Source of the DNA: a virus
Lineage: Duplodnaviria > Caudoviricetes
IMG/VR virus record: IMGVR_UViG_3300036832_001686
Span: 1-55,268 of that record
Length of the DNA stretch: 55,268 nt
Reading direction: 5' to 3' (one strand)
The translations under genes were made by a program, and so were the position numbers. The notes beneath the pieces are model-generated. The model did no database searches. It was not told the origin of the DNA and was given only the letters and a program-made list of their open reading frames with translations. Shown piece after piece: positions 1 through 55,268 of the stretch (position 1 is the stretch's first letter; the number at the start of each line of letters is the position of its first letter).

Positions 1-127
1 CAGGCGCAAAAACGTAAAGATCAAAGCAGCTCAACCGATGAAGCGTTAAAACGGTTGCACAAAGAATCGCCGGAATTAGCCGATCTGGTTGTGGAGGAAC
101 GGATGAGCTTAGGCGAAGCCGAGGCGG
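1..127. repeat. 127-bp exact repeat, copy 1 (circular-contig overlap)
   Basis: 1-127 is identical to 43892-44018; identity breaks at base 128 versus 44019. Confidence 0.97.
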
Positions 128-11378: not shown

Positions 11379-12008
11379 ATGCCGACTTCTGATGCCGTTA
11401 TTGTTGGTAAAATTACCATCCCCGAGGTTGGGGGTGGCCCCATCATTCCTCCTGCTGACGCGGTAGTCATGCCGCCGATTTATTTGCCGATCACGCCGCC
11501 AGGTCAGCCTGAACACCCGATCTACATTCCCGTTTATCCGGCTCATCCCATTGAGATTGTGCCGCCTACACCGGAACACCCGATCTATTTGCCTTCCGAT
11601 GGTAGCCCGACCCATCCGATCTATATCCCGGGCAAACCGACTCATCCGATCGCTCCCGGCGGTGGACCCGAGCATCCGATTTATTTCCCAGTATTTCCAT
11701 CACATCCCATCGAAATCGTGCCGCCTACGGCTGAACATCCGATCTATTTGCCGATCGGACCGGAGCATCCGATTTATTATCCCGTCGGGGCGGAACATCC
11801 GATTGTTTATCCACCGGAAGGAACACCGGAACACCCGATCTATTTGCCGGTCGCACCCGCCCATCCGATTGAATTGCCGGAGGCACCGTCAGAACCTGGC
11901 AACGGCTTAACGCCGGAACATCCGATTCTGTTACCCGGCGATACCATCACCCTTTACGTATCCCTGGGACCAGGAAAACCGATTCAGATCGCCATCCCCA
12001 AGAAATAG
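11379..12008 (+). CDS. Proline-rich protein with 13 xxHPI repeats
   Basis: PEHPIY/PAHPIE/PTHPI units; own late motif; directly after the capsid gene. Confidence 0.8.
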   Translation: MPTSDAVIVGKITIPEVGGGPIIPPADAVVMPPIYLPITPPGQPEHPIYIPVYPAHPIEIVPPTPEHPIYLPSDGSPTHPIYIPGKPTHPIAPGGGPEHPIYFPVFPSHPIEIVPPTAEHPIYLPIGPEHPIYYPVGAEHPIVYPPEGTPEHPIYLPVAPAHPIELPEAPSEPGNGLTPEHPILLPGDTITLYVSLGPGKPIQIAIPKK

Positions 12009-16762: not shown

Positions 16763-19129
16763 ATGACTAGAGACCTCCAAGAACTCAAACTCCTGATAAC
16801 CGGGCATACGGACGCCTCGGTCGGCGCGGCCAGCGCTAAAGTCGTCGGTGAAGTCAAAAAGCTGGCAGACAGTTTGGACCGGTTGGCGGGCATCGAAAAA
16901 CAGATTGGTCAGGTCAACATTACTGTTGCCGAGGGATTCAAGAAGATGGGGACCGGCGCCAGGCAAGCCAAAGAAGAATTGACCGGCTTTGAGGCTAGCT
17001 TGAAACGAGTCAAGGAAATTGCGGCCGGCGTTTTCAGCGGCGAAGCGCTCTGGGAAGGATTCAAGACCGGGATTGAAGCGGTCAAAGAAGGCATCGGTGA
17101 AGTCGTTACCCAACTGCAAGAAGCCTCGAAAGCGGCCAGTGATTTCGAGATGGTGCAGAAAGGGATCGGGAACCTGTTACGCGATCAAGCGTATGCCAAC
17201 GCCATGATTGGCCGATTCCAAGAAGTGGCCGTCGGATCTCCCTTCCAAGCGCAAACCCTTTTGGAGACCGCCCGCTCGCTCACCGGTCGCGGCATGCAAA
17301 AGGAAATGCTCGAATCTCGGACCGAAGAGCTCGGGGATATCGTGGCGGGGCTCGGCGGCGGTCCGGATTTAATGGGCCGATTGACGCTTGCCTACGGTGA
17401 GGCTTTCAGTCAGCACCTTGTCGATAAGCGGATCATCAACCAATTCAGCAAGGCTGGTGTCAACATCATGTCCGAGCTGATGAAAGCCTACGGGCTCGAT
17501 CCGAAGTCCGACGCTGACACACAGCGCATGTATAAGATGATCCACGATAAACAGATCACCTTTACCGATATCGACAAAGCGATCTACGAGCTCACGCACA
17601 ACATGGGGCTCTATGCGGACGGTATGAAGAAGCACGCCGACACTGCTCAAGGTGTCTGGACCGGGTTCCTCGATCGGATGCTCTATATCCAGCAGGATCT
17701 CGGCGCCATCGTTAACGATATTTCCATGACGCTCTTAAGCTTGCTGGAGAAAAGCGGATTTTTGAAAGCGTTCGATACCTGGCTAAAAGGTATAAAGAGC
17801 ATGGCGGACAGTATGACCGAGCATTTCAAGCTGTTCGATGGGGGGAAGATTATCTCGTTTTTTCAGACCGTCGGAGATGGCATCCAGCAATTCATGGTGA
17901 AGCTGGGTTTGATCTCGAAAAGCGCAGAATCGAAATATCTCACTAGCGACATTTACGCCTTTGCCGGTCAACGACCGGAGACCTTCGGCAAGCAACATCC
18001 GCAACTAGGCATGGTAACGCCGGCGTGGAAACTCGGAGGGGACTTCGAATCGGCGGGGATCTTACCAGCTGCCGCAAGTCCCGCAGACAAACTGACTACC
18101 TGGTTAGATCAGCTCTCCAATATTCTGGGCAGCATTCAGACGGAGCAGGTCACAAATTTTTTAGAATGTTTGCTGACGATATCTACCGAGATCAAAACCG
18201 ATTACATCGAACCGATCTTTAAATTCTTCAAAGCTGTTGGCGATTTCGGAGATTGGTGCGCCGGACCCGGCCACGATCAAGTCATTGGTTTCTTCAACAC
18301 CATCAAAGATTTCTGGGACAAAATTGTGGGGAAACCAACGCCGATCTCGGCAGCCCGCAGCACTGTGGATATCGACCGGGAGATGGTTAACCAACGGCAA
18401 AGGGAATTGAACGATAAAATTTCAATGGGCTTGCAGAACCAAATCGAGCCCGCCAAAGCCGCTTTAACTCTTGCCCAAGACAAACTCAAAGTTGATACCG
18501 CTTTGCTGACAGTGACAGACTCACTCACAAAAGCTTTCGAAGGTCATAGCCCGGGTCTGATCCCAGCAACCGAGACTGCGACCGCTGCGCTGGATGCATT
18601 TACCCAAACGCTGCTCTCGATGCCGCTGGGTGCCGCGGCGGGCGGCTTTGGTGGTGCGGCTGGCGGCGGTGCTGGCGTCACCGAGTACGGTCCGTCGATC
18701 GATCCGCCAGGGTCTCCTAATTACGATTACAACTCCTATCACCGCATTGGGGCGTGGCCCGGAGTGACTGGTCCGCTTCAGCCCGGCGATGTCGCGCTTG
18801 GCTACGGCGCCCAAGCTCATTACGGGGTGCAGCCAGGGCAATGGTTCACTGACGATCAAGGGCGCCACGTTCGGTTCGCCGATCGCAGCGGAAGCAAGAA
18901 TCCGATGAATGAGGACATCTTCCGGCTTGCGGCTGGCGGCATCGTGCGTCGACCGACGACTGCGCTGATCGGCGAATCCGGACCGGAAGCGGTGGTCCCG
19001 CTGCGTGGTGCCGGCGCCATCGGTCACACCATCAACGTGACGGTCAACGGCTATGGGGATGGCGAACAGATCGCGGAGATGGTCCGCCGCGTTTTGGAAG
19101 AGGAAACGGAACGAACCGGTTCAGTCTGA
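16763..19129 (+). CDS. Tape measure protein with C-terminal 3D(DPBB)-like domain
   Basis: SPFQ, LGDIVAG, INQFSKAGVNI and AAGGIVRRPTTALIGESGPEAVVPL; VTEYG...DVALG...FADRSGS...EDIF. Confidence 0.92.
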   Translation: MTRDLQELKLLITGHTDASVGAASAKVVGEVKKLADSLDRLAGIEKQIGQVNITVAEGFKKMGTGARQAKEELTGFEASLKRVKEIAAGVFSGEALWEGFKTGIEAVKEGIGEVVTQLQEASKAASDFEMVQKGIGNLLRDQAYANAMIGRFQEVAVGSPFQAQTLLETARSLTGRGMQKEMLESRTEELGDIVAGLGGGPDLMGRLTLAYGEAFSQHLVDKRIINQFSKAGVNIMSELMKAYGLDPKSDADTQRMYKMIHDKQITFTDIDKAIYELTHNMGLYADGMKKHADTAQGVWTGFLDRMLYIQQDLGAIVNDISMTLLSLLEKSGFLKAFDTWLKGIKSMADSMTEHFKLFDGGKIISFFQTVGDGIQQFMVKLGLISKSAESKYLTSDIYAFAGQRPETFGKQHPQLGMVTPAWKLGGDFESAGILPAAASPADKLTTWLDQLSNILGSIQTEQVTNFLECLLTISTEIKTDYIEPIFKFFKAVGDFGDWCAGPGHDQVIGFFNTIKDFWDKIVGKPTPISAARSTVDIDREMVNQRQRELNDKISMGLQNQIEPAKAALTLAQDKLKVDTALLTVTDSLTKAFEGHSPGLIPATETATAALDAFTQTLLSMPLGAAAGGFGGAAGGGAGVTEYGPSIDPPGSPNYDYNSYHRIGAWPGVTGPLQPGDVALGYGAQAHYGVQPGQWFTDDQGRHVRFADRSGSKNPMNEDIFRLAAGGIVRRPTTALIGESGPEAVVPLRGAGAIGHTINVTVNGYGDGEQIAEMVRRVLEEETERTGSV

Positions 19130-41429: not shown

Positions 41430-42577
41430 GCGACCCACGCAAAGGTTTGCCTAGCGCCTCGGCCATGTATCGACTGTCGGAATGTCCCGGCAGTTTGACC
41501 CTGACTAATTTATTGCGCGAGCGCGGCCAACTTTACCAGTTACGCGACCGCGCGGTAAGCTCAGGAAATAGAATCCACGCTTGGCTAGCTCAAGAAGCTT
41601 TAGCGAATGATCCGCTGGTAGCGCTAGACCAGGACGAAGAGCAGATAGCTAAAATGTGCGCCAGTTTGCGCGACGAACGCCGCGAGCAATGGCTCGCTCC
41701 TACCCTGGAACAAGAAGTCTTTGTAGAACAACGATTCTGGTATCGGTCCGGTTTTTTGCCGCGTTTTAGCGGTCAACCTGATTACCTGGTGATCGACCAA
41801 GACGCTAAGTGCGCTTGGGTAGCAGACTACAAAACCGGCCGGCGCGAAGCCCAAGAGGCGGCAGATAATTTGCAACTGCGCGCCGAGGTGGTGCTCCTAA
41901 AACATAACTTCCCGGAACTCGAGCAAATCAGCGCTAGTATTATCGAGCCATTAGTTAGCTGGGATAATGTCAGCGTGGTCTATGAAGGCGCCGATTTAGT
42001 GAGTGCTGAAGCTAACATTCTGGAAATTGTGGCTCGGACCGAGTTTGAACGCGAACACCGCGTGGCCGGCCCCTTTTGCGTTTATTGCCCGGCTAAAGCC
42101 CATTGTCGTGAAGCGTTCGCTTATGCCCAGAGTGTGCCAAGCGTGGCGCCGGAAAAAGCGATTGCCGAATTGCCCCGCGGCGTGAACGGCGTCCGCTTAT
42201 GGGAACGTGCCAAAGTCGCCAAAAAGCTCATCGAAACAATCGAGGAAGCGTACACCCAGATTTTGGAGACTGAACCGGAAGCCTTGCCTGGTTACATCTT
42301 GCCCAAAGAAGGACGCACCCGGCGCTTTGTGCCGTACCCGGCTAAGTTCAAAGCGGCCTTAGCCGATTATTTAACCGGCGAGGAAATCGACGGGTGCGCC
42401 AACTACCATTTGTCCAGAATCGAAGAACTCTTTGGCCTGAAAACAAAACTTAGCGGTAAAGAGTTACAGTCAACTTTTAAGGCCGTCGTTAACGATACGG
42501 TTTCGACGACTCGGGATGCGCCTTTTATCCGGGCGAAAACCAAACGGGAGCGAGAGGAGGCGCCGCAACTAAAATGA
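41426..42577 (+). CDS. PD-(D/E)XK Cas4-like exonuclease (DUF2800-like)
   Basis: SASAMYRLSECPGS, GQPD, DYKTG, NLQL and CVYCPAKAHC. Confidence 0.85.
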   Translation: MSDPRKGLPSASAMYRLSECPGSLTLTNLLRERGQLYQLRDRAVSSGNRIHAWLAQEALANDPLVALDQDEEQIAKMCASLRDERREQWLAPTLEQEVFVEQRFWYRSGFLPRFSGQPDYLVIDQDAKCAWVADYKTGRREAQEAADNLQLRAEVVLLKHNFPELEQISASIIEPLVSWDNVSVVYEGADLVSAEANILEIVARTEFEREHRVAGPFCVYCPAKAHCREAFAYAQSVPSVAPEKAIAELPRGVNGVRLWERAKVAKKLIETIEEAYTQILETEPEALPGYILPKEGRTRRFVPYPAKFKAALADYLTGEEIDGCANYHLSRIEELFGLKTKLSGKELQSTFKAVVNDTVSTTRDAPFIRAKTKREREEAPQLK

Positions 42578-43392
42578 GCGACCTACATATAATTTCTTTA
42601 GGGGCTGGGGTGCAGAGTTCCACTATGGCGCTTATGGCTGCCGCTGGAGAAATTACTCCCATGCCGCAGGCTGCGATATTCGCCGATACTGGCGCTGAGC
42701 CTGGGAGCGTCTACCGGTGGTTAGACTGGCTTGAAAAACAACTTCCGTTTCCAGTTCACCGAGTCATGCAAGGCGAAGGGCTCGCAAAAGATGCGCTACG
42801 AATTAGGCAGAGGAAAGATGGCAAAGGGTCTTGGGTTCCGAGCGGTATTCCTCACTTCTCAGAGAATAGCGATGGAACATTCGGTCAGGGCCCGCGGCAA
42901 TGTACGCAGGATTTTAAACTCGCTCCCTTAATGCGTGAGGCTAAAAAGTTGATGAAGGAAAATGGTGCTAATCACCTCATCCAATGGATCGGGATTTCAC
43001 TGGATGAGGCGCACCGGATGAAACCGAGCCGGGTTAATTACGCCACGTCGATTTGGCCGTTAATAAAGCTGCGCATGAAGCGCTGGGATTGCTTGCGTTG
43101 GATGCAGAAGCATGGCTTTCCTAAGCCGCCTAGGAGTGCCTGCGTCTTCTGTCCCTATCATTCCGACACAGAATGGAAAAGGCTTAAGATTGAAGAACCT
43201 GAGGAATTCGCGAAAGCAGTAGATTTTGAGCGTGCTTACCAAGACGCAAAGCGCCTCACGTTCGGAAAAGGTTTTACTCCCTTCCTTCACGCGTCTCGAA
43301 CGCCCCTAGATCAAGTCGACTTTTCAACCGACGAAGACCACGGCCAGCAAATCATGTTCGGCAACGAATGCGAAGGGATATGCGGCGTATGA
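42574..43392 (+). CDS. PAPS-reductase-like (PP-loop, Cys-rich) protein
   Basis: ISLGAGVQSS, FADTGAE, IGISLDE, SACVFCPYH and ECEGICG. Confidence 0.82.
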   Translation: MSDLHIISLGAGVQSSTMALMAAAGEITPMPQAAIFADTGAEPGSVYRWLDWLEKQLPFPVHRVMQGEGLAKDALRIRQRKDGKGSWVPSGIPHFSENSDGTFGQGPRQCTQDFKLAPLMREAKKLMKENGANHLIQWIGISLDEAHRMKPSRVNYATSIWPLIKLRMKRWDCLRWMQKHGFPKPPRSACVFCPYHSDTEWKRLKIEEPEEFAKAVDFERAYQDAKRLTFGKGFTPFLHASRTPLDQVDFSTDEDHGQQIMFGNECEGICGV

Positions 43393-43456
43393 TCTGGTTT
43401 TTACTGATCTGGATCGGGCTCACGCTCTTAATGCTGCGATTCTTGCAATTCACCAA

Positions 43457-44018
43457 ATGAAAATTCATCCGGTAGCAGACCTCTTTCCTATGATGTCGGA
43501 TGACGAACTCACCGAGCTCGCCACCGACATTAAAGCTAATGGGCAAATCCATCCCATTATTATCGATAACGATATTATTATTGATGGTCGGAACCGGCTC
43601 GAGGCTTGCAATCGGGCTGGAATACAACCGACTTTTGCCGAGCTGAACGGCCAAGATCCGGTCGCGTTTATTCTCTCAGCCAATATTGCAAGGCGCCATC
43701 TTTCCAAGGGCCAACAAGCCATGGCGGTAGCGAAAGCGTTATTACTAAGTAATAAAACGCAAACTCAGGCGGCAAAACAGACGCAAGTAAGTCAAACCCG
43801 GATCGCACAAGCTTCGATCGTTCTGCAATACGCACCCGATCTAGCCGATGGCGTACTATCGGGCGCGCTCGCGCTCAACGTCGCCTATGAACAGGCGCAA
43901 AAACGTAAAGATCAAAGCAGCTCAACCGATGAAGCGTTAAAACGGTTGCACAAAGAATCGCCGGAATTAGCCGATCTGGTTGTGGAGGAACGGATGAGCT
44001 TAGGCGAAGCCGAGGCGG
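43457..44018 (+). CDS. ParB-N domain protein, N-terminal part (continues at 128..375)
   Basis: IHPVADLFPMM...DIKANGQIHPII...DGRNRL...NIARRHLSKGQ. Confidence 0.88.
43892..44018. repeat. 127-bp exact repeat, copy 2
   Basis: Identical to 1-127. Confidence 0.97.
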
Positions 44019-44255
44019 GATGCCCGCCCCGCCGAGTCCTTTTTCGGTCAGCACTAAATGCCGATCGAGAAAGAGTTCTCGCAGTGCCATACGGAAGAAT
44101 GAGAAATTAGTTTCATCCTTGCCGTAAGGCCCGGCTAATTGCTGTAGATCTTTCATTTTATAGAAAGCGCCATGACTAATCGGACCGAGCTCTTTCTCAA
44201 TCCGGTCCATGATTTGCAGCATGAACTCGTTTCGAGTTAGCAGTTCCTCGCTCAT
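44019..44255 (-). CDS. Hypothetical protein coupled to the RAMP-like gene, truncated at the junction
   Basis: ATGA overlap with 44252..44866; runs off at 44019. Confidence 0.65.
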
Positions 44256-44866
44256 GGTAAGACCTCCACTTCAAAACGCCCGTAGCGCGGCCGCCAATCG
44301 CATAGTCCGATATAAAACCCAGCATCGATAGCCGATTTAAGTAGAGCGTCCCCGTTCACCACGTTCGCATCGAATTTCAGTAAAAACTCGAGCACCCACG
44401 GAACGGGGAAAATTGGTCGGGTCCGCACAATTCGGCTTTGATTAACCCGAACTAACTTCGTGAAAACGAAGTTGCTGTTACCATCTGCCCACATTTTTTC
44501 CTTGGTCCGCGGGCCTTGGTAATCGAGCCGGATCACGCCCGCGTCACCGGTTTTACCATCACCCTCCACAAAAACGGCCAATCCGACCTCTTTTCCATAT
44601 TTGGACTTTTTAGCCCCGGCGGTGATGGTAGCTAATATATTATCGGTTGGGACCACTGGCCCAAATTTTTCATCCCAATATAAACTTCCTTGCCACTCCG
44701 CCTTAGCTAAATCGACCAAATCTTCATCGGTCTTTTTTCTTTTGGAGCTCAGCGCCTTGATGCGCCTAGCTGCTGGGTTCAGTGGATTAGCTAAAGTACC
44801 TTGGTGATGGATTAGATCACTGACTCCGGTAAACCGGAGCCGCATCGTTTCTAAACTAGATTTCAT
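44252..44866 (-). CDS. Stand-alone RAMP/Cas7-like protein (Vipr-like)
   Basis: LRFTGVSDLIHH, PVVPTDNILATI, RIVRTRPIF..W and C-terminal Gly loop AGFYIGLCDWRPRYGRFEV; adjacent to GGY/NN arrays. Confidence 0.75.
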   Translation of the reverse strand: MKSSLETMRLRFTGVSDLIHHQGTLANPLNPAARRIKALSSKRKKTDEDLVDLAKAEWQGSLYWDEKFGPVVPTDNILATITAGAKKSKYGKEVGLAVFVEGDGKTGDAGVIRLDYQGPRTKEKMWADGNSNFVFTKLVRVNQSRIVRTRPIFPVPWVLEFLLKFDANVVNGDALLKSAIDAGFYIGLCDWRPRYGRFEVEVLP

Positions 44867-44905
44867 TTTCTATCTTTCTTTCTTTCTTTCTGTTCGAGCC
44901 TCACG

Positions 44906-45045
44906 AGCTCGCTACTGCCGACTAACAATTCTGTTAGCCGGCAGTGTGCGAACTAAATCGCCCATGCCTTGCCTTGCCGCGCCGTGCCTGGCCCTGCCTC
45001 GCCTTGCCTCGCCGCGCCTTGCCCTACCAAGCCGCGCCAAAATCC
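44906..45045 (-). ncRNA. Guide-like RNA unit A: (NN-GGY)x15 + AT-GGG + hairpin
   Basis: Perfect 5-nt register 44961-45040; 3' hairpin TCGCACACTGCCG-GCTAACAG-AA-TTGTTAGT-CGGCAGTAGCGA. Confidence 0.8.
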
Positions 45046-45062
45046 TAGAGTCTGCTTTCAGC

Positions 45063-45209
45063 AGCTCGCTACTACCGTTAGCAGTTGCCAACGGCAGTAT
45101 GCGAACCGTTATGGTTTCGCCCATGCCTTGCCCCGCCAGGCCTCGCCTCGCCCTGCCGTGCCAAGCCTCGCCGCGCCCTGCCAAACCCGGCCTCGCCAGG
45201 CCAAAATCC
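45063..45209 (-). ncRNA. Guide-like RNA unit B: (NN-GGY)x16 + AT-GGG + hairpin
   Basis: Perfect 5-nt register 45120-45204; 3' hairpin TCGCATACTGCCG-TTGGCA-AC-TGCTAA-CGGTAGTAGCGA. Confidence 0.8.
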
Positions 45210-45263
45210 AAATTTTTAACTGACCTTTTTTCGTAAGCTTTTTTTAGGTCCGTGCGTTATTTA

Positions 45264-45473
45264 TTAGGGATCAAGCTCATTGGCTGTTAGCTCTGCCAAG
45301 CGGTCGATCAACTCTAAGGCCCCGGCCAAAGTCTCGAGATCCAAGCTCGAATCGAAGAACACCCGGTCGCGGCACCCGGCAACAAACGCGCGGCCAGTGA
45401 GTCCCCTGGCTTTGGCGCGCTCGATTCCCGCCTCGAGCAGCGCGACTAATTCGTTTTGTTTGGGAGTCATCAT
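45264..45473 (-). CDS. Hypothetical protein
   Basis: Co-oriented small ORF in the minus-strand run. Confidence 0.55.
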   Translation of the reverse strand: MMTPKQNELVALLEAGIERAKARGLTGRAFVAGCRDRVFFDSSLDLETLAGALELIDRLAELTANELDP

Positions 45474-45493
45474 GTTAGTTACTGCTTAGTTTT

Positions 45494-45730
45494 TTAATTG
45501 CTCTCGAACCGATCAGCTTCGAGCCCGCGCTGACCAACCTGGAGGAACTCCACCAGCTCGGAGACATCGCCTTTGGTGCTCACGAAATAGTCGAAAATCA
45601 TGTAACCAATCTTTTTTTCGACCGTGTCCCACTCTTCGCTTCCCAGCCAATCTAGGGCCAGAGCTTCGAAGGCCTGCCGTTGTTTCAACCGGGCTTCTTC
45701 TATAGGGTCCATATTCTTAGGAGTCTGCAT
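45494..45730 (-). CDS. Hypothetical protein
   Basis: Co-oriented small ORF. Confidence 0.6.
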   Translation of the reverse strand: MQTPKNMDPIEEARLKQRQAFEALALDWLGSEEWDTVEKKIGYMIFDYFVSTKGDVSELVEFLQVGQRGLEADRFESN

Positions 45731-45857
45731 TGATAGCTAGTCGGCTATTTTGGTTAGTTGCGGGCGGCCCGGCCAAATGCAGAAATGCGCGTCCGTCCGC
45801 TGCGCAGGTTTTTCCGACAAGCATGGTCACTCTGCGCTTGACCGTGTCCGCCTACTC

Positions 45858-46184
45858 TCACTTCCCGCCGGCGGCTGGCGGGTAAGCTTTTACTTTCGCC
45901 AGTTTATCTAAAATTCGATCCAGCGTAGCTTCCAGCTCTTCCAGGTCGGTCCCATCGAGAACGATAGACACCAGTTTATCGACGATGTTAGTTGTCTGGT
46001 TCTCTAATGCTTCCAGATCACTGGGGGTGTTTTCCTCAATGTATTTTAGGTTCCCGGTGATATTATTTGTCTGTTCGTTTAATGCTTCCAGATCACCAGG
46101 AGTATTTTCTTCGATGTACCGCAGGCCAACGGCGATATTACCTGTCTGTTTGTTTAGTTCGTCGAGATGCTGCCGCTCATTCAT
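45858..46184 (-). CDS. Coiled-coil protein with about three 25-aa repeats
   Basis: (D)LEALNEQTNNITGNLKYIEENTPS-type units. Confidence 0.7.
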   Translation of the reverse strand: MNERQHLDELNKQTGNIAVGLRYIEENTPGDLEALNEQTNNITGNLKYIEENTPSDLEALENQTTNIVDKLVSIVLDGTDLEELEATLDRILDKLAKVKAYPPAAGGK

Positions 46185-46554
46185 TTGTACTCTCCGCCGT
46201 TATGCGAAGTTCCCGCCGAGGGGCATCATCGACGATCCCAACAAATTCGCAGTGAGTGTCACGCAGACAATCCTGCCCGTTGTCGCCACCCTCAAAAATA
46301 ATTGCCCAAACCTCTGAAAATCCGTGTTCGAGCTGACATCGCCGGATTTGGTCTGGACTCCACGAATGCGGGACCGTGATGTCGATATCCAACTTGCACC
46401 GGAAACGCGCGACCTTGGTTACGACGACGCAATCGCGAGCGTGCGGAGTACCCACTAACTGCTCGCAATAAAAACACGCATCCGACGGTCCGGCTGGCCG
46501 GATACCGTCGTCTTGTGGATCCACTAAAGGCCAATTCGAATCGCCTGTGCTCAT
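46177..46554 (-). CDS. Cys/His-containing hypothetical protein
   Basis: IRPAG..DACFYC...HARDCV; overlaps both neighbours. Confidence 0.65.
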   Translation of the reverse strand: MSTGDSNWPLVDPQDDGIRPAGPSDACFYCEQLVGTPHARDCVVVTKVARFRCKLDIDITVPHSWSPDQIRRCQLEHGFSEVWAIIFEGGDNGQDCLRDTHCEFVGIVDDAPRRELRITAESTNE

Positions 46555-46796
46555 TGCGCTTTGGCCAGTTGAGCCCTCTGAAACCGAGCACCCCCAGGCA
46601 GGAACGAATGGATAAAATCGTCGAGCGACTTTTTGTTAATCAACCGAACGCCTTTGCGTTTCCCGGGCTTAACAATATGGACGCTCAAGACCTCTTCGGT
46701 CATGCATTGCCGATAGATCTCCGAAATGGATAGCCCGGTCCTGGCGCTCGCGTCTTGGAGCTTCTCCCAGTCGGGTTCGACGAATTTTCTGCTCAT
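46551..46796 (-). CDS. AlpA/excisionase-like HTH protein
   Basis: LQDASARTGLSISEIY...GVRLINKKSLDDFI. Confidence 0.78.
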   Translation of the reverse strand: MSRKFVEPDWEKLQDASARTGLSISEIYRQCMTEEVLSVHIVKPGKRKGVRLINKKSLDDFIHSFLPGGARFQRAQLAKAQ

Positions 46797-46914
46797 GAAC
46801 AATATTGAGCACAAATTCGCAATCCGAAATAGTCGGCCTCAGAAAGATTTTTTAAGAGCACCTATTTCGCCTGAAATTGGTGGCCTTGAAGAAAAAGCTA
46901 GAGGCCCACTATTT

Positions 46915-47475
46915 TTAACGCTTGGTCGGTCTGCCAGCTCGAGCCGGCTTAAGCGCGCCTAAGCCCGCTTTTCGAAGAATTCGGGTCCAAGCGTGTTTTT
47001 TCGGAACAGCTTTTCCGGCCGCTTTTAAAATCTCTTCGGCTCTGGCTCTCACTTCGCGTTTGGTCGGCCAGTCATTCTTAGATTCACCGATAAAGAGAGC
47101 GTCAAAGACTTGAAGCGCCGCCCGGATCCCGTGCATTTCCGGTTCGGGCCAACTATCGTAATCCATGACTTTGAGAAGATTTTCAAAGTAAGCGCGGTCA
47201 CCGTCGAAAGCGGCTTTTAGAAGCCGGGCCTTGAATTTTTCGATATCTGCGGCGCCGCTTTCCAAAACCTGGCGATAGAATGGGGAATCGGCAGAGAACT
47301 TTTCGAGTAACCCAGGATATCCTTTTTCATAGTCGCGCCAATCTTCGAGCTGTTCCCAAATATCGGCAGGACTGTCCAGCGGCTGCTCAAAGTTAAGATT
47401 GTCGATATTGTACTTTTGGTACGCATCGAGATAGCCAGGCGGATATTCTATCTTCTTGTACTTTTCGTCTTCCAT
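46915..47475 (-). CDS. Hypothetical protein, possible C-terminal HTH regulator
   Basis: 186-aa ORF right after the integrase; WPTKREVR...WTRILRKAGL. Confidence 0.65.
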   Translation of the reverse strand: MEDEKYKKIEYPPGYLDAYQKYNIDNLNFEQPLDSPADIWEQLEDWRDYEKGYPGLLEKFSADSPFYRQVLESGAADIEKFKARLLKAAFDGDRAYFENLLKVMDYDSWPEPEMHGIRAALQVFDALFIGESKNDWPTKREVRARAEEILKAAGKAVPKKHAWTRILRKAGLGALKPARAGRPTKR

Positions 47476-47489
47476 GGAACCGCGAACCC

Positions 47490-48653
47490 CTATTGGGCTT
47501 TGGGCAACCGCGGGATGAGTTGAGTGGCGGCTTTGATTGCGTCCAGATCCTCGTGGATATAGCGGTCGACTACGCCCCCGGCGGCGTGATTGGTGACCCG
47601 GCGGGTGATCTCCCGAAGGGCCGCCCCGTTGAATACATTGCTGGCCGCGGTGTGCCGGAAACTGTGAAACGAGAGCGCCCTGACCGAACGGCCTTTGCCT
47701 GCGTTGCCTTGACGCAAGAACCGCTTTTCAATACCCGCCTTGTCGAGTAACGCAACGAACGTATTCGAAAGCCCGTGCTCGCCATTCAACGCCTTGTCGG
47801 CCAACGTGGGGAATACCGGTGCGTCAGCGGCCTCCTCGGGTGTGGGCCGAACCGCTAGCCAATCAAGAAAGTCAGAGTGCAACCCAAGCACCGCCTGGGC
47901 CTTGGTCTTGCGCTCACGAAAAACGACGATCCCGTTCGCAACATCGAGGTTCGACCATTTAAGGCTCTTGCAATCACCGAGTCGGGCCCCGGTCCCGTAC
48001 GCGAACAGGATCACCCCTTGCCAATCAGAATCAGCGACCGCGAGCAGAGCGGCGATTTGGTCGCCCGTAAAGGTCTCTTTACTGAGCGACTCGCTCCTTT
48101 CGGGCGCGGTCGCCATGACCGGGTTGAAGCGGATCTTGCCGACCTTGCGGGCCTTCTCGAATGGGGCTGACAAATATTTGCGGATCAGCTTATTGATCGT
48201 CGCCGGGGATCGGCCCTCTTTGCGTAGGAGCCGGATAAATCCTTCAATATCGGCTGTGGTAATGGAATCCAGACGCCGGGTTTGGGCGCCACGTCCGCCC
48301 AGGTAGGCTAAAAATTCCTCAACAGCCTGGGCATAGGCTTTATAGGTTGAAACTTCAATCTGGCCCTCTTTAGAGCCGAGCCATTCACCCAACCAGCTTC
48401 CGACACTAACGAAGTCGATTCCTGAGGAGCCGATCCGTTCGAGGGTTTCATTTAAGATTTCTAAGACCCGGGATTGGGAAAGCCGCCCCTCTGCTGCCGC
48501 ATCTTCGGCACTCTGCCAGGCCTCGGCGATAACCTTCGCCTTGGGCTTATCCCGGGTCTTAGTCGAACGCCAGACCCGGCGTCCGTCGCCGAGAGTGAGA
48601 ACTGCGTACCAGGTGCCTTTGGGGGATCGAGTGTTGCGGTGAACCGAAGCCAT
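47490..48653 (-). CDS. int: Tyrosine integrase
   Basis: TGARLGD, KTK, SFHSFRH and H...YIH. Confidence 0.93.
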   Translation of the reverse strand: MASVHRNTRSPKGTWYAVLTLGDGRRVWRSTKTRDKPKAKVIAEAWQSAEDAAAEGRLSQSRVLEILNETLERIGSSGIDFVSVGSWLGEWLGSKEGQIEVSTYKAYAQAVEEFLAYLGGRGAQTRRLDSITTADIEGFIRLLRKEGRSPATINKLIRKYLSAPFEKARKVGKIRFNPVMATAPERSESLSKETFTGDQIAALLAVADSDWQGVILFAYGTGARLGDCKSLKWSNLDVANGIVVFRERKTKAQAVLGLHSDFLDWLAVRPTPEEAADAPVFPTLADKALNGEHGLSNTFVALLDKAGIEKRFLRQGNAGKGRSVRALSFHSFRHTAASNVFNGAALREITRRVTNHAAGGVVDRYIHEDLDAIKAATQLIPRLPKAQ

Positions 48654-48655
48654 AG

Positions 48656-48858
48656 ACTCACTAACACGATTCACTACCGAGCAACTTAATTCCAGAACAT
48701 TCTAGAACATTCTTCTCTCTCGGAATCAGGCACTTACAGAGGGGTGAATAAGGTACCGAGGGTTCGAATCCCTCCCCATCCGTAGGTGCTTAGAATGAGG
48801 CACTTACAACAAATCAGAGCCAGAAAATCGCCAATTCGCTAACAGATTCACTAACAGG
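48656..48858. other. Satellite attP region
   Basis: TCACTAAC-like arm repeats paired on each side, GAATSAGGCACTTACA direct repeats (48723, 48793), and tandem AGAACATTCT. Confidence 0.75.
48753..48782 (+). tRNA. 3' end of a tRNA (Ser-like), att core (not a full tRNA)
   Basis: GTACCGAGGGTTCGAATCCCTCCCCATCCG: T-arm plus 3' acceptor strand. Confidence 0.75.
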
Positions 48859-48969
48859 CGTTTTGAAATCGGCTTGAACTAACTTGAAATCCCTCCTGCC
48901 CTGCCGAAGTTTACCAGGCCGGCCAAGCTCGGCTAGTCTGTCGCTGTGCCAACGCTTTGCCAATGAAAG

Positions 48970-49179
48970 ATGCCTCGCAAGATCCGAGACCTGATCAAGG
49001 ATTTAAAGTCGGCTGGTTGGTCACAGGTTGCCGGGGGCAAGGGCTCCCACCGGAAATTCAAGCACGACAAATTCCCTGGGGCGGTGCTGATTCCGGGTCA
49101 CGATAACGACGACTCTAAACCCTACCTAGAAAAGCAAGTTAAGAACGCGGTTAAAGGCCGAATGGTACGCAAGCCATGA
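48970..49179 (+). CDS. hicA: HicA-family toxin
   Basis: LIKDLKSAGW...GKGSHRKFKH...VLIPGH. Confidence 0.92.
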   Translation: MPRKIRDLIKDLKSAGWSQVAGGKGSHRKFKHDKFPGAVLIPGHDNDDSKPYLEKQVKNAVKGRMVRKP

Positions 49180-49400
49180 GCGAAACCAAAAAAATCACCA
49201 TGTGGGTTCAATGGAGTGATGAAGACGGTGCCTTTCTTGGCTACTGCCCGCAGTTCTTCCCTTACGGCGCGGTCTGTGACGGTCACACCCAAGCCAAGGC
49301 CGTAACCAAACTTGCTCGACTAGTCCGGGAAGAATTGGAAGAACGCGGACAACTCCCTAAACCGCTTACGAAAGGGCGAAAGGCCCGAGTCGCACACTAA
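49176..49400 (+). CDS. hicB: Short HicB-family antitoxin
   Basis: VQWSDEDGAFLGYCP...GHTQAKAV...LPKP; ATGA coupling to hicA. Confidence 0.85.
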   Translation: MSETKKITMWVQWSDEDGAFLGYCPQFFPYGAVCDGHTQAKAVTKLARLVREELEERGQLPKPLTKGRKARVAH

Positions 49401-49430
49401 GCTTCTGCCCTGCCGAAGTTCACCAGGTCG

Positions 49431-49437
49431 GTAAGTA
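49431..49437 (+). promoter_or_regulatory. Helper-type GTAAGTA late motif
   Basis: CGGTAAGTA, 9 nt before ATG 49447 in front of the satellite TMP gene. Confidence 0.7.
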
Positions 49438-49498
49438 AGCTTTGAAATGACCGAGAATTTAAACAAGGGGGCCCGCTGGAACGAGGCGGGATAGAGTC

Positions 49499-51946
49499 AT
49501 CACTCGCGATCTACAAGAGTTAAAGATCCTAATTTCGGGGCATACGGACGCCTCGGTCGGTGCCGCCAGCGCTAAAGTGGTCGGCGAAGTCAAAAAGCTG
49601 GCAGACAGTCTAGACCGGTTGGCGGTAATCGAAAAACAGATTGGCCAGGTCAACAACGCGGTCGCGGAGGGATTCAAGAAAATGGGGAGTGGCGCTCGCC
49701 AAGCCGAAGCTGAACTGACCGGCTTTGAGGCTAGCCTGAAACGAGTTAAAGAAATTGCAGCCGGCGTCTTTAGCGGCGAAGCGCTCTGGGAAGGATTTAA
49801 GGGCGGCGTCGAGATGGTCAAGGAAGGTATCGGGGATGTCGTGGAACTGCTGCAGAACGCATCGAAAGCAGCCTCTGACTTTGAGATGACGCAGAAGGGA
49901 ATTGGTAATCTGCTGCGCGATCAGCCCTATGCCAACATGCTGATCAAGAACTTGCGGGAAACCGCTGTCGGCAGTCCTTTTGCGCCCGAGACGCTGTACG
50001 GCGCCGCTCGAGCGCTGACAGGGCGCGGCATGGACAAGAGTCTGCTCGAGTCGCGCACGAATGAGCTGGGCGACATCGTGAGCGGTATTGGCGGTGGGCA
50101 AGAGATGATGGAACGGCTGACGCTCGCATACGGCGAGGCGTTCAGCGAGCACCTCGTCAACAAGCGAATTCTCAACCAGTTCGCCCAGGCTGGCGTCAAC
50201 ATCACGTCCGAGATCATGAAGGCTTATGGCATGGACCCCACGGATGCCAACGTGCAGAAATTCCAAAAGATGGTGCATGATAAACAGATCACCTTCACCG
50301 ATGTCGATAAAGCACTCTACACTTTGACGCACGGCATGGGGATTTATGCGGACGCGATGCAGAAACACGCGGAGACAGCGCAAGGTATCTGGACGGGATT
50401 CATCGCGAGGCTGAACTTCATCGAAGTCGATCTCGGCGGCATCGTTAACGACATCTCGATGACGTTGCTGAACCTGCTCGAAAAGAGCGGCTTTCTGAAA
50501 GCATTCGACACCTGGCTGCAAGGGATCCGCACCATAGCGGACAGCATGACCGAGTATTTCAAGCTGTTTAACGGCGAAAAGATTATCCATTTTTTCCAGA
50601 CCGTCGGAGACGGCATCCAGCAGTTCATGGTGAAGCTGGGTTTAATCTCCAAAAGTACAGAATCAAAATATCTCACTAGCGATATCTACGCCTTTGCCGG
50701 TCAGCGTCCCGAGACCTTTGGTAAACAACGGCCGCAACTGGGCCGGGTAACGCCAGCCTGGAAACTGGGCGGAGAATTCGAATCCGAGACAATCCTGCCG
50801 GCCGCACCGACACCGACGGTGGCGGATAAATTGACCAAATGGTTAGACGATCTCTCTAACACTCTGGCCAGCATTCATACGGAGCAGGTCGAAGATTTCC
50901 TGCAAGGTTTGGTGACGGTATCGACCGCAATCGGCGGAGTCAGTATGGATTTCTTTGGTGAAATTGCTGATTTCTTCAAGGACATGTACACCTTCGGGCA
51001 ATGGTGCGGCGGACCCGGCCACGATATGGTGGTTGGGTTTTTCAACGCCATCAAAGATTTCTGGAACAACATTGTTCAATGGATCTCGGATCACATCCCG
51101 CCCTTTCTGAAATTGACGGCGCCCTCGGATCAAGAGAAACGAATGAACGAAGCGGCGGATAAAGCCCGCAGCACCGTCGATATCGACCAGGAGACAGTCA
51201 ACCAGCGGCAAAGCGACCTGGACAATAAGATGTTGTTGGGCACCCAAGACCAAATTGATCACGCTAAATCCGCTTTAACCCTGGCCCAGGACAAGTTGAA
51301 AGTTGATACCGCGCTCGCCGCGGCGGCAGAGTCACTCACCAAAGCGTTCGAAGGTCATAGCCCCGGGCTGATCCCGGCAACCGAGACTGCGACCGCGGCG
51401 CTAGATGCATTTGCCCAGGCCATGCTCTCTATGCCCCTTGGAGCAGCCACGGGGGGCTTTGGTGGTGCGGTCGCTGGCGGTGGTGCTGGCGTCACTGAAT
51501 ACGGGCCGAGCATCGATCCGCCCGGGTCTGCTGACTACGATTATAACTCGTATCACCGTATCGGTGCGTGGCCTGGAAAGACAGGGCCCTTGAGTCCTGG
51601 TGATGTCGCGCTTGGCTACGGCGCGCAAGCTCATTACGGGGTGCAGCCCGGGCAATGGTTCACTGACGATCAAGGGCGCCACGTTCGCTTCGCCGATCGC
51701 AGCGGGAGCAAGAATCCGATGAACGAGGACATTTTTCGCCTCGCTGCTGGCGGCATTGTGCGACGTCCGACGACTGCGCTAATTGGCGAGTCTGGGCCCG
51801 AAGCGGTGGTGCCCTTACGCGGTGCCGGCGGTATCGGTCACACTTTCAATGTGACGGTTAACACTGTCGCCGGTGACGGCTACGCAATCGCAGAGATGGT
51901 GATGAATGCACTGCAGGAGCTCACGGAGCGAACCGGCTCCGTGTAA
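49499..51946 (+). CDS. Tape measure protein paralog of 16763..19129 (start uncertain)
   Basis: Colinear end to end. Homology begins at ATC 49499 (ITRDLQELK versus MTRDLQELK), upstream of the GTG called at 49577. Confidence 0.9.
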   Translation: MTRDLQELKILISGHTDASVGAASAKVVGEVKKLADSLDRLAVIEKQIGQVNNAVAEGFKKMGSGARQAEAELTGFEASLKRVKEIAAGVFSGEALWEGFKGGVEMVKEGIGDVVELLQNASKAASDFEMTQKGIGNLLRDQPYANMLIKNLRETAVGSPFAPETLYGAARALTGRGMDKSLLESRTNELGDIVSGIGGGQEMMERLTLAYGEAFSEHLVNKRILNQFAQAGVNITSEIMKAYGMDPTDANVQKFQKMVHDKQITFTDVDKALYTLTHGMGIYADAMQKHAETAQGIWTGFIARLNFIEVDLGGIVNDISMTLLNLLEKSGFLKAFDTWLQGIRTIADSMTEYFKLFNGEKIIHFFQTVGDGIQQFMVKLGLISKSTESKYLTSDIYAFAGQRPETFGKQRPQLGRVTPAWKLGGEFESETILPAAPTPTVADKLTKWLDDLSNTLASIHTEQVEDFLQGLVTVSTAIGGVSMDFFGEIADFFKDMYTFGQWCGGPGHDMVVGFFNAIKDFWNNIVQWISDHIPPFLKLTAPSDQEKRMNEAADKARSTVDIDQETVNQRQSDLDNKMLLGTQDQIDHAKSALTLAQDKLKVDTALAAAAESLTKAFEGHSPGLIPATETATAALDAFAQAMLSMPLGAATGGFGGAVAGGGAGVTEYGPSIDPPGSADYDYNSYHRIGAWPGKTGPLSPGDVALGYGAQAHYGVQPGQWFTDDQGRHVRFADRSGSKNPMNEDIFRLAAGGIVRRPTTALIGESGPEAVVPLRGAGGIGHTFNVTVNTVAGDGYAIAEMVMNALQELTERTGSV

Positions 51947-52162
51947 TTGATACAACTAACCGACGTCGGTTAGTTTCCATCACGGTCGACGTATCCCGAA
52001 AGTCTGCTCGGGTGCTTGGCGGCTCAGAGGGCTAAAGCGAAAGTTAGTAATGATAGGCGCTTTAACTTGAGCAGGCTTTTCCTCCTGCGCCCAGGAGGCC
52101 AGCAGTTCCTCTGCACGTTTTCGCAGCAAACGGTTAGAAAGTTTCCGAGACATAACTTGTTA

Positions 52163-53320
52163 TTAATTGCTCACGCCCGAATTTGTCGAGATCGCCCAGG
52201 CTTGCGTGTGCCGGAACTTAACATCTACCCAGCTGTCCAAAATAAAGCGAACGCGCCCGCTGGTACTTTGGCTATACGGATCCACAAAAACTTCAGTGCC
52301 GCCCCAGTGGGCAAAAATCGCATTCGAGAAATCTCCAAAGAGCACTTGGTTAGTGGCTCCGATCTGGTTAGTTCCGATAAAATCCCAGCCAGCGATACCT
52401 GCGTCATTCGCGTAAAAGTTTGGATAATAGGTGGTCGCGCCTCGTGCATCCTGACGTGCGTATCCCTTCCACGCGGCTAATGTGCTCGGCGAACAAACGA
52501 ACCGGGTGGTTGCAGGGTCTAGATCCACATCGCACGCGCCGGCGACATTCGCCTCGAATTGCAAGACTGCGGCCCACGTCGGCGGCCCGCCTGTTGCGAA
52601 CGTCACCGAGGGGGCTAGCTCGCCATAAACGCTCGTCCCGGGCGCGGAACTCGGGATGGTAAACAATCCCACAGGCTGGTTGTTAGCCGGCCCAGTGCCC
52701 CATAACCCTGCGTAATCTTCAGCCACTGCGATGCTCCTCAACAAATCGTTGGCGACGAACTGTTGGGCGCTCAAAGCGCTTTGAGTTAACAATTGTCGAC
52801 TGACCACCGCAACCGAGTTCAATCTCTTGGGGGACAAAACAATTTGTGCGAAAGTTCGGTCCGAACTGGTCGCGGGGCTGATCTCGGGAAGCCACGCCGA
52901 AGTGGAGGCCGAGGTCTGACCTGCAATCGCCAAATCACCCTGAAGATTGTCGAGAAAAACGGCCCCGGCTCGACCAAAGACCATCTTTTTTCTGAGCAGG
53001 TCGATCAGTCGCGGCGACACATCCGTCTGGATAAGCGAACCACCGGCGCCAGGCGTACCTGCCACGGCGTCGCGCATCACCGCTCGCCCGATCGGTGTGT
53101 CTCTTAACGAAAAGCAGAGACACGAATCGGGGAGCCAAATTGCGTTCGGATTTTTTTTCTGGCGCCCTTCAGATAGAGCAACGTCAACCGCTTTTTCCAG
53201 GCCGCTCAATCGCTGATCGCCCGCCTCGCGCAGAGCTTTGCACAAATCGTAACGCTGCAGTTCCTTTGCGGGGATCGACGGGAACGGAGCCAGAGTCAGG
53301 GGCTTGGTTTGATAGTCCAT
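52163..53320 (-). CDS. Major capsid protein paralog lacking the protease and most of the scaffold region
   Basis: RYDLCKA, RLSGLE, RDAVAGTPG, LLRKKMVFGRAGA, NQIGATNQVLFG and the C-terminal STNSG are shared with the helper capsid. Confidence 0.9.
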   Translation of the reverse strand: MDYQTKPLTLAPFPSIPAKELQRYDLCKALREAGDQRLSGLEKAVDVALSEGRQKKNPNAIWLPDSCLCFSLRDTPIGRAVMRDAVAGTPGAGGSLIQTDVSPRLIDLLRKKMVFGRAGAVFLDNLQGDLAIAGQTSASTSAWLPEISPATSSDRTFAQIVLSPKRLNSVAVVSRQLLTQSALSAQQFVANDLLRSIAVAEDYAGLWGTGPANNQPVGLFTIPSSAPGTSVYGELAPSVTFATGGPPTWAAVLQFEANVAGACDVDLDPATTRFVCSPSTLAAWKGYARQDARGATTYYPNFYANDAGIAGWDFIGTNQIGATNQVLFGDFSNAIFAHWGGTEVFVDPYSQSTSGRVRFILDSWVDVKFRHTQAWAISTNSGVSN

Positions 53321-53802
53321 TTTTGGTGACTTTGTTAGGTCGATTTGACCGCCTAAACCGTACACCCTGGACCACGGGCTTGACAGCACAAAAGATGTCG
53401 CTTGTCCAGAGCTGCGCCGTCTCTGATACTAACGCCATGTTTTCCTGGCGCAGAGCTTTTGCGGCCCTCTTGCCGCCGCATAAAAAAACTGGCGAGCAGG
53501 TGACGCGACCGCCGTTGATGTTGTCACCGCTCTTCTCCTCGCCGTACAGGAGCGAACCAGTTGGTTGGTTTACCCATGTTGCAGGCCTCGATGTCACCGG
53601 CAGCAACACCAACTCCGGACTGTTCAACCGTCGCCCTCGTTCGTGGGAGACTCAGCAACAAGTCCCGAATTGGGTAGGAGCGGGACAGCACTCACCGCCA
53701 GCGCCGCTTTTGCTGGACGCGAATCAAGCCCCAGGATTCTATCGGCCTCGCATTTCGGTTTTCACAACGCCGGCTAAGCTCGGCCGTCTCTGGAAATGGT
53801 AA

Positions 53803-54036
53803 TTGCAAGACTCAACCCGACGAACACTGCTGTGCAGCGCTGCTGAGGGCGATGTCTATTTCGCTCGGGCCGAGCCGTGGCGAGGCTGCTGGTTTGAACT
53901 GCGCTCGAACACGCCTCCAGGAGTATGCTTGGCCACCTATTGTTTGCCGGGAACACAGCCGGCGTGGTTAGGAGACCGTCCGCCTGCGCCCGAGACGTGG
54001 GTGCAGGTTGCCCGTGAGCGGCGACTGATCCCTTGA
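53803..54036 (+). CDS. Small hypothetical protein, paralog 1
   Basis: WxELR-x7-C-x3-YxLP...APxxWVQ, shared with the next ORF. Confidence 0.55.
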   Translation: MQDSTRRTLLCSAAEGDVYFARAEPWRGCWFELRSNTPPGVCLATYCLPGTQPAWLGDRPPAPETWVQVARERRLIP

Positions 54037-54076
54037 CAGCGCGACTCCTCGGGGATTACACAATTGCTTCTGCGGT

Positions 54077-54319
54077 ATGGATGCTCCCCCTCATCTCTGC
54101 ACCCTCATCTCGCGAACGCATTTTCTGACCGTCAAGGACCGCCACGGCTGGCAATGGTTTGCCTACTTTTGCACATCTGAAATCACACAAGAACGCTGGA
54201 TTGAACTCAAGGGCAGCGAGGACCGACAAGGCTGCACCAAGCGCTATTGGTTGCCCGATGACCAGCACGAGCTCGCGCCCCCGGCGTGGGTGCAAAAGAT
54301 TCCGCGCCAACTGCTCTAG
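54077..54319 (+). CDS. Small hypothetical protein, paralog 2
   Basis: WxELK-x7-C-x3-YxLP...APxxWVQ. Confidence 0.6.
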   Translation: MDAPPHLCTLISRTHFLTVKDRHGWQWFAYFCTSEITQERWIELKGSEDRQGCTKRYWLPDDQHELAPPAWVQKIPRQLL

Positions 54320-54609
54320 ACGATGATCGGCAGCGTCTGCGGCAGTAATTGATAGAGCGTGCTCGCTAAAGAAAAAAGGCTAGTTAATCGTCCACTAGCA
54401 CACACTAGTTTCCGACCAACTAGCCCAAAAACCCAAATATCTAGAACCAGATACTTCTTCTTGAGCCTACTACAACAACGCACCGCAGACAAAGGAATAC
54501 CGGCAGCGAGAGAACGCCCAGATAACGTCAACAACGGTGCTCACTCCTGGCCGTCATTTTCTGTGTGCCGTGCAGCGGGTACCGTTTGCCAGAAATTTAA
54601 AAGTGCTAC

Positions 54610-54807
54610 ATGAAATTTGATCAATCGAATACGGTCTATATCGGTGATGCCGTTTACGCGACTTTTGATGGTTGCGGCATCGAATTACGACTTAACAGCC
54701 ACAAGAGCGAATGCCTCATCTATCTTGAGCCTGAGGTGATGGCAACCCTGGTCGAATTCTGGCGGAACGCGAGCGAGGTCGAAAATTCGAAAGTTCTATT
54801 CAAATAG
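54610..54807 (+). CDS. Small phage-type hypothetical protein
   Basis: YIGDAVYATFDG...IYLEPEV. Confidence 0.65.
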   Translation: MKFDQSNTVYIGDAVYATFDGCGIELRLNSHKSECLIYLEPEVMATLVEFWRNASEVENSKVLFK

Positions 54808-54872
54808 CAGTTGTTCAGCAAAAGTTGCTGGAAGTTGAAAACCTCGCGCCAAAACGAAGTTTTGCACTGCCT

Positions 54873-55130
54873 TCACTTTTCACGCAGACTTTTGAGCAAA
54901 TCGTCGGTCGATTCGAACACCGGCAAATTTCCACTCTCGGCTTCTTCGAGCGCCAGGTGAAGCCGCTCTTCATTTGCATTTGATCCCAAAAGATAAGCAG
55001 TTTCGGCATCGCTATTTGTTTTGTGTGAAACATTCTTAGCCGGCAGCTCGAATTTTTCTCTTAGCTTCTTAAAAAATAGCGGCGCAGCTTTCGGCCGTCC
55101 GTTTTTGCGCTGACTTTTTGGGCGCTTCAT
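54873..55130 (-). CDS. Orphan YefM C-terminus-like antitoxin mimic
   Basis: ETAYLLGSNANEERLHLALEEAESG resembles YefM ETAYLLRSPANARRL. Confidence 0.6.
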   Translation of the reverse strand: MKRPKSQRKNGRPKAAPLFFKKLREKFELPAKNVSHKTNSDAETAYLLGSNANEERLHLALEEAESGNLPVFESTDDLLKSLREK

Positions 55131-55227
55131 TTCTTACCGCTTAGATAATTCGCACAAAATATCGCGGTCTTCGTGCATGATCTCCGAGGGTCCCTATTTT
55201 GGCCGCCGGCAAGTTTTGCACTCACTC

Positions 55228-55268
55228 AAAAAATCTCACATTCGCAAAAAATTCGTGGTCCTCAGACC
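55228..55268 (-). other. cos-like terminus; core GGTCTGAGGACC
   Basis: The last 12 nt form the dyad GGTC-TGAG-GACC; 29 of 41 positions identical to 3084-3124. Confidence 0.7.

Follow-up and report, generated by a model that had tools for sequence, protein, structure and literature searches.

VIPR is an RNA-guided system whose code is non-contiguous. It was first reported in 2026 as a CRISPR-like DNA silencer composed of a RAMP protein (Vipr), guide RNAs termed vrRNAs and a vap gene (10.64898/2026.04.26.720920). According to that preprint, each vrRNA carries 9-16 YNNGG units, in which NN is hypervariable, and a structured tail that does not vary, the latter being a pseudoknot in the SUSP1 clade. 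A pangenome search, competitive binding and GFP repression are presented there as evidence that the NN dinucleotides pair with DNA while one base is skipped per unit, the skipped bases falling mostly on wobble positions (10.64898/2026.04.26.720920). Satellites, prophages and other VIPRs are named as targets at a cut-off of 80% NN identity, no PAM is said to be needed and self-targeting is reported to be absent, and in the case of SUSP1 changed NN bases redirect silencing to a new matching target (10.64898/2026.04.26.720920). The structural basis, including the Vipr residues that contact G1, G2, Y3 and the skipped base, is covered by a companion preprint (10.64898/2026.04.26.720927). A later one reports that codon-phased targeting blocks mutational escape and that satellite vrRNAs are aimed at host repeats, and describes a guide caller together with three nulls (10.64898/2026.10.15.759431).

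The window analysed here is a stretch of 55,268 nt (IMG/VR record IMGVR_UViG_3300036832_001686, positions 1-55,268) that originates from soil. With a probability of about 0.9, its region of periodic GGY triplets represents two tandem minus-strand VIPR guide RNAs located upstream of a vipr gene and a vap1-like gene (Table 1). The locus belongs to a kind already published in 2026 (VIPR, bioRxiv, April and October 2026); it is a divergent member of that kind from a soil phage, with a different tail and guide layout, and may already stand among the 664 loci of the preprints.

As in the type II VIPR of Escherichia phage SUSP1 (10.64898/2026.04.26.720920, 10.64898/2026.04.26.720927; PDB 36pp), the locus combines a Vipr homologue in which the contacts are kept, GGY/NN vrRNAs that share the strand of vipr and end in a predicted structured 3' tail, a putative vap1-like gene whose overlap with vipr would couple the two in translation, and the lack of a self-target. 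The two Vipr proteins, however, are only ~36% identical, and two tandem vrRNAs lie upstream of the gene in the window, whereas one upstream and three downstream vrRNAs are described for SUSP1. Further differences concern the tail, in the window a long two-part hairpin whose sequence is unrelated to that of the SUSP1 tail, the vap gene, which unlike that of SUSP1 spans ~80 residues in the window record, and the carrier, an uncultured soil temperate-type phage segment as opposed to a virulent Felixounavirus. The VIPR of the Pseudomonas fulva prophage clade (relatives LESphi2 and Medea1) resembles the window locus in its temperate context, next to regulators or an integrase, and prophage lysis-lysogeny regulators are given as its targets (10.64898/2026.04.26.720920). 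The likeness extends to GGC-rich units and a shared vap1 cluster, although the Vipr proteins of the Pseudomonas relatives are 38-40% identical to that of the window.

The Cas7/Csm3 backbone of class 1 CRISPR systems has the same RAMP fold (the best structural matches being Csm complexes) and, when bound to crRNA, is likewise described as assigning one protomer to every repeat step of the RNA, the bases flipped out by the thumb being regularly spaced (10.64898/2026.04.26.720927). Class 1 CRISPR differs in its repeat-spacer array, other cas genes and adaptation module, none of which occurs at the window locus, and in its step of 6 nt with 5 read bases, as against 5 nt with 2 read bases in VIPR. 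Class 1 CRISPR-Cas was considered for the locus and rejected, as the only repeats recovered near the gene are the pentamer tracts and the neighbouring genes are without Cas families (Pfam, PHROGs). In the case of TRAP of Bacillus, RNA is recognized through triplets spaced by 2-3 nt, which are bound by the oligomer while the free bases act as spacers. Fixed triplets bound by an oligomer are thus common to TRAP and VIPR, whereas the free bases carry information in VIPR only and the two protein families are unrelated.

Guide tracts, RNA tails and neighbouring genes

A search for five GCC triplets spaced by NN, with at most one mismatch, returned 25 matches in the window on the + strand, all of them confined to 44961-45038 and 45120-45202, whereas 0.02 matches were expected from 100 dinucleotide-preserving shuffles. 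On the minus strand, the unit caller resolved 16 GGYNN units running from 45202 to 45123 and 15 running from 45038 to 44964, both numbers being within the published VIPR range of 9-16, and every unit of the two tracts (16/16 and 15/15) conforms to GGY. No comparable tract was found elsewhere in the 55 kb, the four other calls being 5-unit runs with 3 conforming units each. The guide pair is situated between two minus-strand genes, on the strand of vipr and 26-336 nt upstream of its start.

Table 1. Predicted features of the VIPR locus and its 3' junction, in window coordinates.
Feature	Coordinates	Strand	Basis or description
vrRNA-a repeat tract, 16 GGYNN units (unit B of the earlier note)	45123..45202	-	pattern search and unit caller; NN units CT GA CG TT AG GC GA TT AC AG GA GA CT GG AA AT
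vrRNA-a 3' tail	45039..45122	-	small hairpin, long two-part hairpin (45106..45063), 3' hairpin, GGATTTT before next tract
vrRNA-b repeat tract, 15 GGYNN units (unit A of the earlier note)	44964..45038	-	pattern search and unit caller; NN units GC TT AG AA GC GA AA GA AG CA AC GC AA AA AT
vrRNA-b 3' tail	44893..44963	-	long two-part hairpin 44953..44906, then small 3' hairpin
A/G-rich leader, AGAAAGAAAG...	44867..44892	-	kept in close relative L263
vipr, 204 aa (P0001), RAMP/Cas7-like protein	44252..44866	-	homology and predicted fold
vap1-like accessory gene (P0002), first 79 codons	44019..44255	-	homology to L263 vap
127-nt stretch identical to window 1-127	43892..44018		assembly branch point, cuts VIPR locus on 3' side

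The orientation of the RNA follows from its predicted fold. The long hairpins of the tails contain G-U pairs on the minus strand that become A.C mismatches on the + strand, and the minus strand folds with an energy of -161.7 kcal/mol (z -7.2) as compared to -107.3 (z -2.9) for the + strand; the RNA should therefore read 5'-(GGYNN)n-tail-3' in the direction of vipr. A tail hairpin of 20 pairs is common to both window tails and to L263, the L-numbers being labels of fetched loci, and among the three sequences 5 of the 20 pairs show compensatory changes, while several of the 20 are G-U. The tail alignment revealed no sequence likeness to other fetched loci when used in an nhmmer search, no Rfam family reached its gathering score in the window (chance-level matches only in 44700-45400), and a simple scan detected no promoter-like or terminator-like sites. 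The vipr gene starts 26 nt past the second tail on the same strand, and the intervening A/G-rich leader likely holds its ribosome-binding site.

Several minor features accompany the tracts. The same GGATTTT precedes both of them (45203-45209 and 45039-45045, minus strand) and may mark where each vrRNA begins or is processed. The final two units are identical in both guides (AA, AT; 44964-44973 and 45123-45132), and AT before GGG also ends the tracts of close relatives and of Escherichia phage tootiki; the AA and AT units may represent a constant tail junction and not variable guide. Two soil runs contain short contigs that agree with portions of the tracts (44966-45184) apart from 2-6 differences and then continue into other GCC-periodic sequence, which suggests that other VIPR arrays are present in those two soils. 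In addition, the small minus-strand ORFs located upstream of the guides contain a 75-nt tandem repeat of 2.3 copies (45983-46156, 76% matches).

The product of vipr, P0001, matches PDB 36pp_D, the 'SUSP1 Vipr protein', with an E value of 1.3e-32 over residues 7-203 (197/204), and a profile built from 13 members of its clade does so with 5.2e-39. The residues of SUSP1 Vipr that contact G1, G2, Y3 and the skipped base (H17, K33, R138, D177, W178, R179) correspond to H21, K37, R150, D190, W191 and R192 of P0001, all six being identical in an alignment counted by hand. An AlphaFold model based on an alignment of 65 homologues (pLDDT 96.3) gave 56 matches with E <= 0.001 in a PDB copy that predates the release of 36pp, the best folds being type III Csm complex chains, Csm3 entries among them (best E 4.9e-6). 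P0001 also falls into phrog_4652 (E 2e-50), while no Pfam family was assigned to either vipr or vap.

The start of P0002 overlaps the stop of vipr in an ATGA, and its product is 32% identical to the vap protein of L263 over 76 residues. The vap cluster of the window, L263 and L264 matches the 74-member SUSP1/Pseudomonas vap1 cluster, to which the tootiki and LESphi2 vaps belong, in hhalign (probability 97.4%, E 1e-11); P0002 is therefore vap1-like, and the system resembles type II. Since the Vipr homology extends to the contact residues and a vap1 homologue is located next to the gene, the locus is identified as a VIPR system. The vap homology, however, covers about the first 83 of ~170 residues and ends at the 127-nt branch point, beyond which the P0002 ORF stays open as far as 43875, in sequence that is unrelated and lies antisense to a ParB-like gene. 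Three further vrRNAs follow vap in L263 and are missing from the window record because the latter branches at 44018/44019. The VIPR locus as recorded is thus incomplete, and may be damaged.

By analogy with SUSP1, one Vipr protomer would bind each GGY triplet, and the protomers would form a helical filament along the vrRNA that presents the NN dinucleotides for pairing with double-stranded DNA carrying the same dinucleotides with one unread base between them. Such binding would silence the target at the level of transcription; the target would typically be a gene carried by a competitor (phage, prophage or satellite), and the unread base would lie at the third position of a target codon. Expression of the vrRNAs, filament assembly and silencing at the present locus are accordingly proposed by homology.

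Related loci and the one-base gap

Relatives of P0001 were detected in 130 phage records, including those of Felixounaviruses, Pseudomonas phages LESphi2 and Medea1, Mycobacterium phage LittleE and Gordonia phage MakoManhole. A second small gene follows the vipr relative in each of the five phage loci that were opened, and GGYNN tracts were recognized by eye on the gene strand in the three flanks read (Escherichia phage tootiki, Pseudomonas phage LESphi2, Gordonia phage MakoManhole). The association proved general in the 195 fetched loci encoding Vipr relatives: with an array defined as six or more conforming units, 548 GGYNN arrays were called, 547 of which are on the vipr strand and 536 within 1.5 kb, and at least one array is present in 170/195 loci, or in 109/122 when loci with enough flank are considered. 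The closest relatives of the window Vipr (59-66% identical) are known from metagenomes only. Alignment-based searches recovered a single close clade member, L263 (60%), and single-protein locus searches of IMG/VR and of GTDB genomes yielded no relatives of P0001.

The earlier note had taken the NN dinucleotides for a guide, with one base skipped per dinucleotide. The former matches the published VIPR rule, the locus being VIPR by protein homology, and the latter agrees both with that rule and with the enrichment over shuffled guides that the note had put forward as a check. The check was run on 380 unique guides of related loci (nine or more units) against 5.6 Mb, comprising all loci and the window with the guide's own locus masked, and a gap of one base alone passed. 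Matches with an identity of at least 0.9 were obtained for 7 guides at gap 1, 1 at gap 0 and 1 at gap 2, as compared to 0-2 with one shuffle per guide, whereas a chance expectation below 0.05 was reached by 6 guides at gap 1, by a single guide at gap 0 and by none at gap 2, as compared to 0-1 in each of nine shuffled sets. Gap 3 trivially recovers homologous arrays.

The top one-gap matches are those of the L013 guide on L065 (22/22, chance expectation 2e-5) and of the L063/L064 guides on L058 (21/22). Four of the five best matches, at three sites, fall within an ORF of ~632 aa that immediately precedes vipr, and their unread bases occupy codon position 3, while the site of the fifth, in L067, is ambiguous between overlapping frames. 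The ~632-aa ORF of L065, the only one scanned among L065, L058 and L062, encodes a GpA-type large terminase. The guides of L013, L063, L064, L068 and L106 and the target sites L065:1660-1691, L058:2393-2424 and L062:1482-1513 all belong to one environmental Vipr clade. The comparison across arrays provides independent computational confirmation of the one-base-gap, wobble-phased rule, and, for that clade, suggests the gene of the large terminase as a target. The suggestion of the earlier note that the skipped base is the wobble position, making synonymous escape hard, is likewise in line with what the VIPR preprints state (10.64898/2026.04.26.720920, 10.64898/2026.10.15.759431).

Targets of the two guides and alternative readings

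The decoded strings that had been proposed for the two guides are correct for units 1-14 of the first tract and 1-13 of the second (minus strand, 5' to 3'), as are their peptide translations, but the last two units (AA, AT) had been omitted. The units had been written as GCCNN on the + strand, whereas the RNA would come from the minus strand; the double-stranded target is unaffected by this correction. Because the targets of both guides were not found, the decoded strings remain testable predictions, and they add no new principle. The proposal that the guides are directed at other phages, satellites or the host is consistent with reported VIPR biology, yet neither guide yielded a target in the collections searched.

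When both strands were scanned exhaustively, allowing gaps of 0-3 bases, the impression gained earlier by eye that the window holds no convincing match was borne out. At gap 1 the best matches were 22/32 (69%) and 18/30 (60%), compared with shuffled-guide maxima of 19.7 +/- 0.8 for the first guide and 18.9 +/- 0.9 for the second; the matches were judged to be on a par with shuffled guides, and one of eight tests gave a shuffle fraction of 0.03. The sole perfect matches in the window are those of the arrays on themselves at gap 3. No self-targeting of the source contig was therefore recorded, 69% and 60% being below the published 80% cut-off.

Among 1 Mb of related loci (the first 115), no target rose above the null. 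IMG/VR was searched with six exact 8-unit seeds that covered each guide three times, which seeded 21, 12, 91, 23, 40 and 31 loci (218 total); upon extension, the best matches were 24/32 and 24/30, each with 8 off-seed matches, and are at chance level, given that 2 and 3 such cases were observed where ~2 were expected among 73 seeds and 1.5-4.6 among 145. The exact 12-unit pattern of units 3-14 of guide a had 0 matches in JGI metagenomes, and with at most three mismatches the same guide was matched in 0/5, 0/401 and 0/401 genomes (807; the 401-genome sets are samples of two phyla chosen on weak grounds). The decoded peptides scored at best 11/16 against 241 fetched proteins, where the null maximum was 10, which is not significant. 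Since the collection scans took exact patterns only, targets with scattered mismatches would be missed, and the negative result, resting in the large scans on exact seeds, is a weak one.

This bears on the somewhat unlikely case that the guides are genuine VIPR guides but belong to a remnant system, or are orphans, whose targets are extinct, unsampled or multi-copy host decoys. Such a state would account for the loss of vap homology near residue 83, where the 127-nt branch point lies, for the absence of the three additional vrRNAs that L263 has after vap and for the failure to find a target in anything searched, and satellite vrRNAs directed at host repeats are reported in one preprint (10.64898/2026.10.15.759431). 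However, vipr is intact and keeps 6/6 contact residues, the tracts are near-perfect GGY arrays in 16/16 and 15/15 units, the truncation of vap may be an assembly artefact and not biology, and the target searches were confined to exact seeds.

Two further explanations deny the dinucleotides a guide function. One, considered first and dropped on identification of the Vipr protein, is a leader of the TRAP type: the GGY triplets would be bound by an oligomer that regulates the gene lying downstream, and the NN bases would serve as spacing without a guide role. Fixed triplets that alternate with two free bases in a 5-nt period, and a gene that follows them directly on their own strand, do fit such a leader, but the adjoining protein is Vipr, whose homologue pairs NN with DNA, the NN of related arrays match genes of other phages at gap 1 (22/22, expectation 2e-5), and arrays are also found downstream of genes in relatives, all of which makes the leader very improbable. 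That the tracts are a simple repeat that has degenerated, or coding sequence with repeats in it, can hardly be credited at all: ORFs of 96 and 99 aa (44946..45236 on the + strand and 44912..45211 on the minus strand) are indeed open across the region, yet a period of 5 nt does not preserve reading-frame meaning, the ORFs cross the conserved hairpins, and the architecture recurs beside vipr in 170/195 loci with different NN content.

Assembly of the record and the branch segment

The 127-nt identity listed in Table 1 has a counterpart in the contigs of the likely source run, where 43567-44018 forms a separate piece of 452 nt with a depth of 36, between pieces at 14 and 12, and a loose end that follows 44018 leads on into the sequence found from window 128 onward. 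From the identity and the contig branch together it follows that 1-43891 closes into a circle, and this part of the window is a complete temperate myovirus-like genome of 43.9 kb. The VIPR-bearing part, 44019-55268, branches off at a shared piece of a ParB-like gene, and may derive from a second, related element or from a mis-join. In 42574-44110, a PAPS-reductase-like gene (phrog_424) is followed by the ParB-like gene (phrog_21315 and others) ahead of the branch point.

The branch segment carries in its 47490-53389 region a second integrase gene (-), together with a tape-measure gene (+) that is 75% identical to the copy at 16763-19129 and a stand-alone major head gene (-) that is 48% identical to 9177-11339 and lies on the opposite strand. 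The order integrase (-), tape measure (+), major head (-) is odd, and the contig pieces break near 48750-48780; the gene order of 47490-53389 may reflect either a satellite-like element or a further mis-join. The notion that 44019-55268 as a whole is a separate integrative, satellite-like element co-occurring with the 43.9-kb phage in the same soil is rather doubtful, and is based on the segment's own VIPR and integrase and on its diverged copies of the tape-measure (75%) and head (48%) genes. If it were true, both guides would be aimed at a third, unsampled competitor, and the VIPR arms race reported between phages and satellites of E. coli would reach into a soil lineage that is uncultured and has a new type of tail and two guides upstream. 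One of the guides decodes to a peptide resembling an HTH regulator (L-E/D-R-L/F-R/S-A-E/D-L/F-T-R/S-E/D-E/D-L-G).

In the search for the host, 25 kb compared with phage records by megablast remained without a match, and the phage tRNA-Lys had none in five genomes of five phyla. The best relatives of the phage terminase are 46% identical, and a match in a Planctomycetes MAG is 33% identical. The genes of 1-43891 comprise those for terminase, portal, a protease-head fusion, sheath, tape measure, fibres and an integrase beside the tRNA-Lys. After the head gene, the ORF at 11379-12008 contains seven copies of a repeat spaced by 30 nt (CATCCGAT core; 11487-11870), which is probably a repeated peptide motif.
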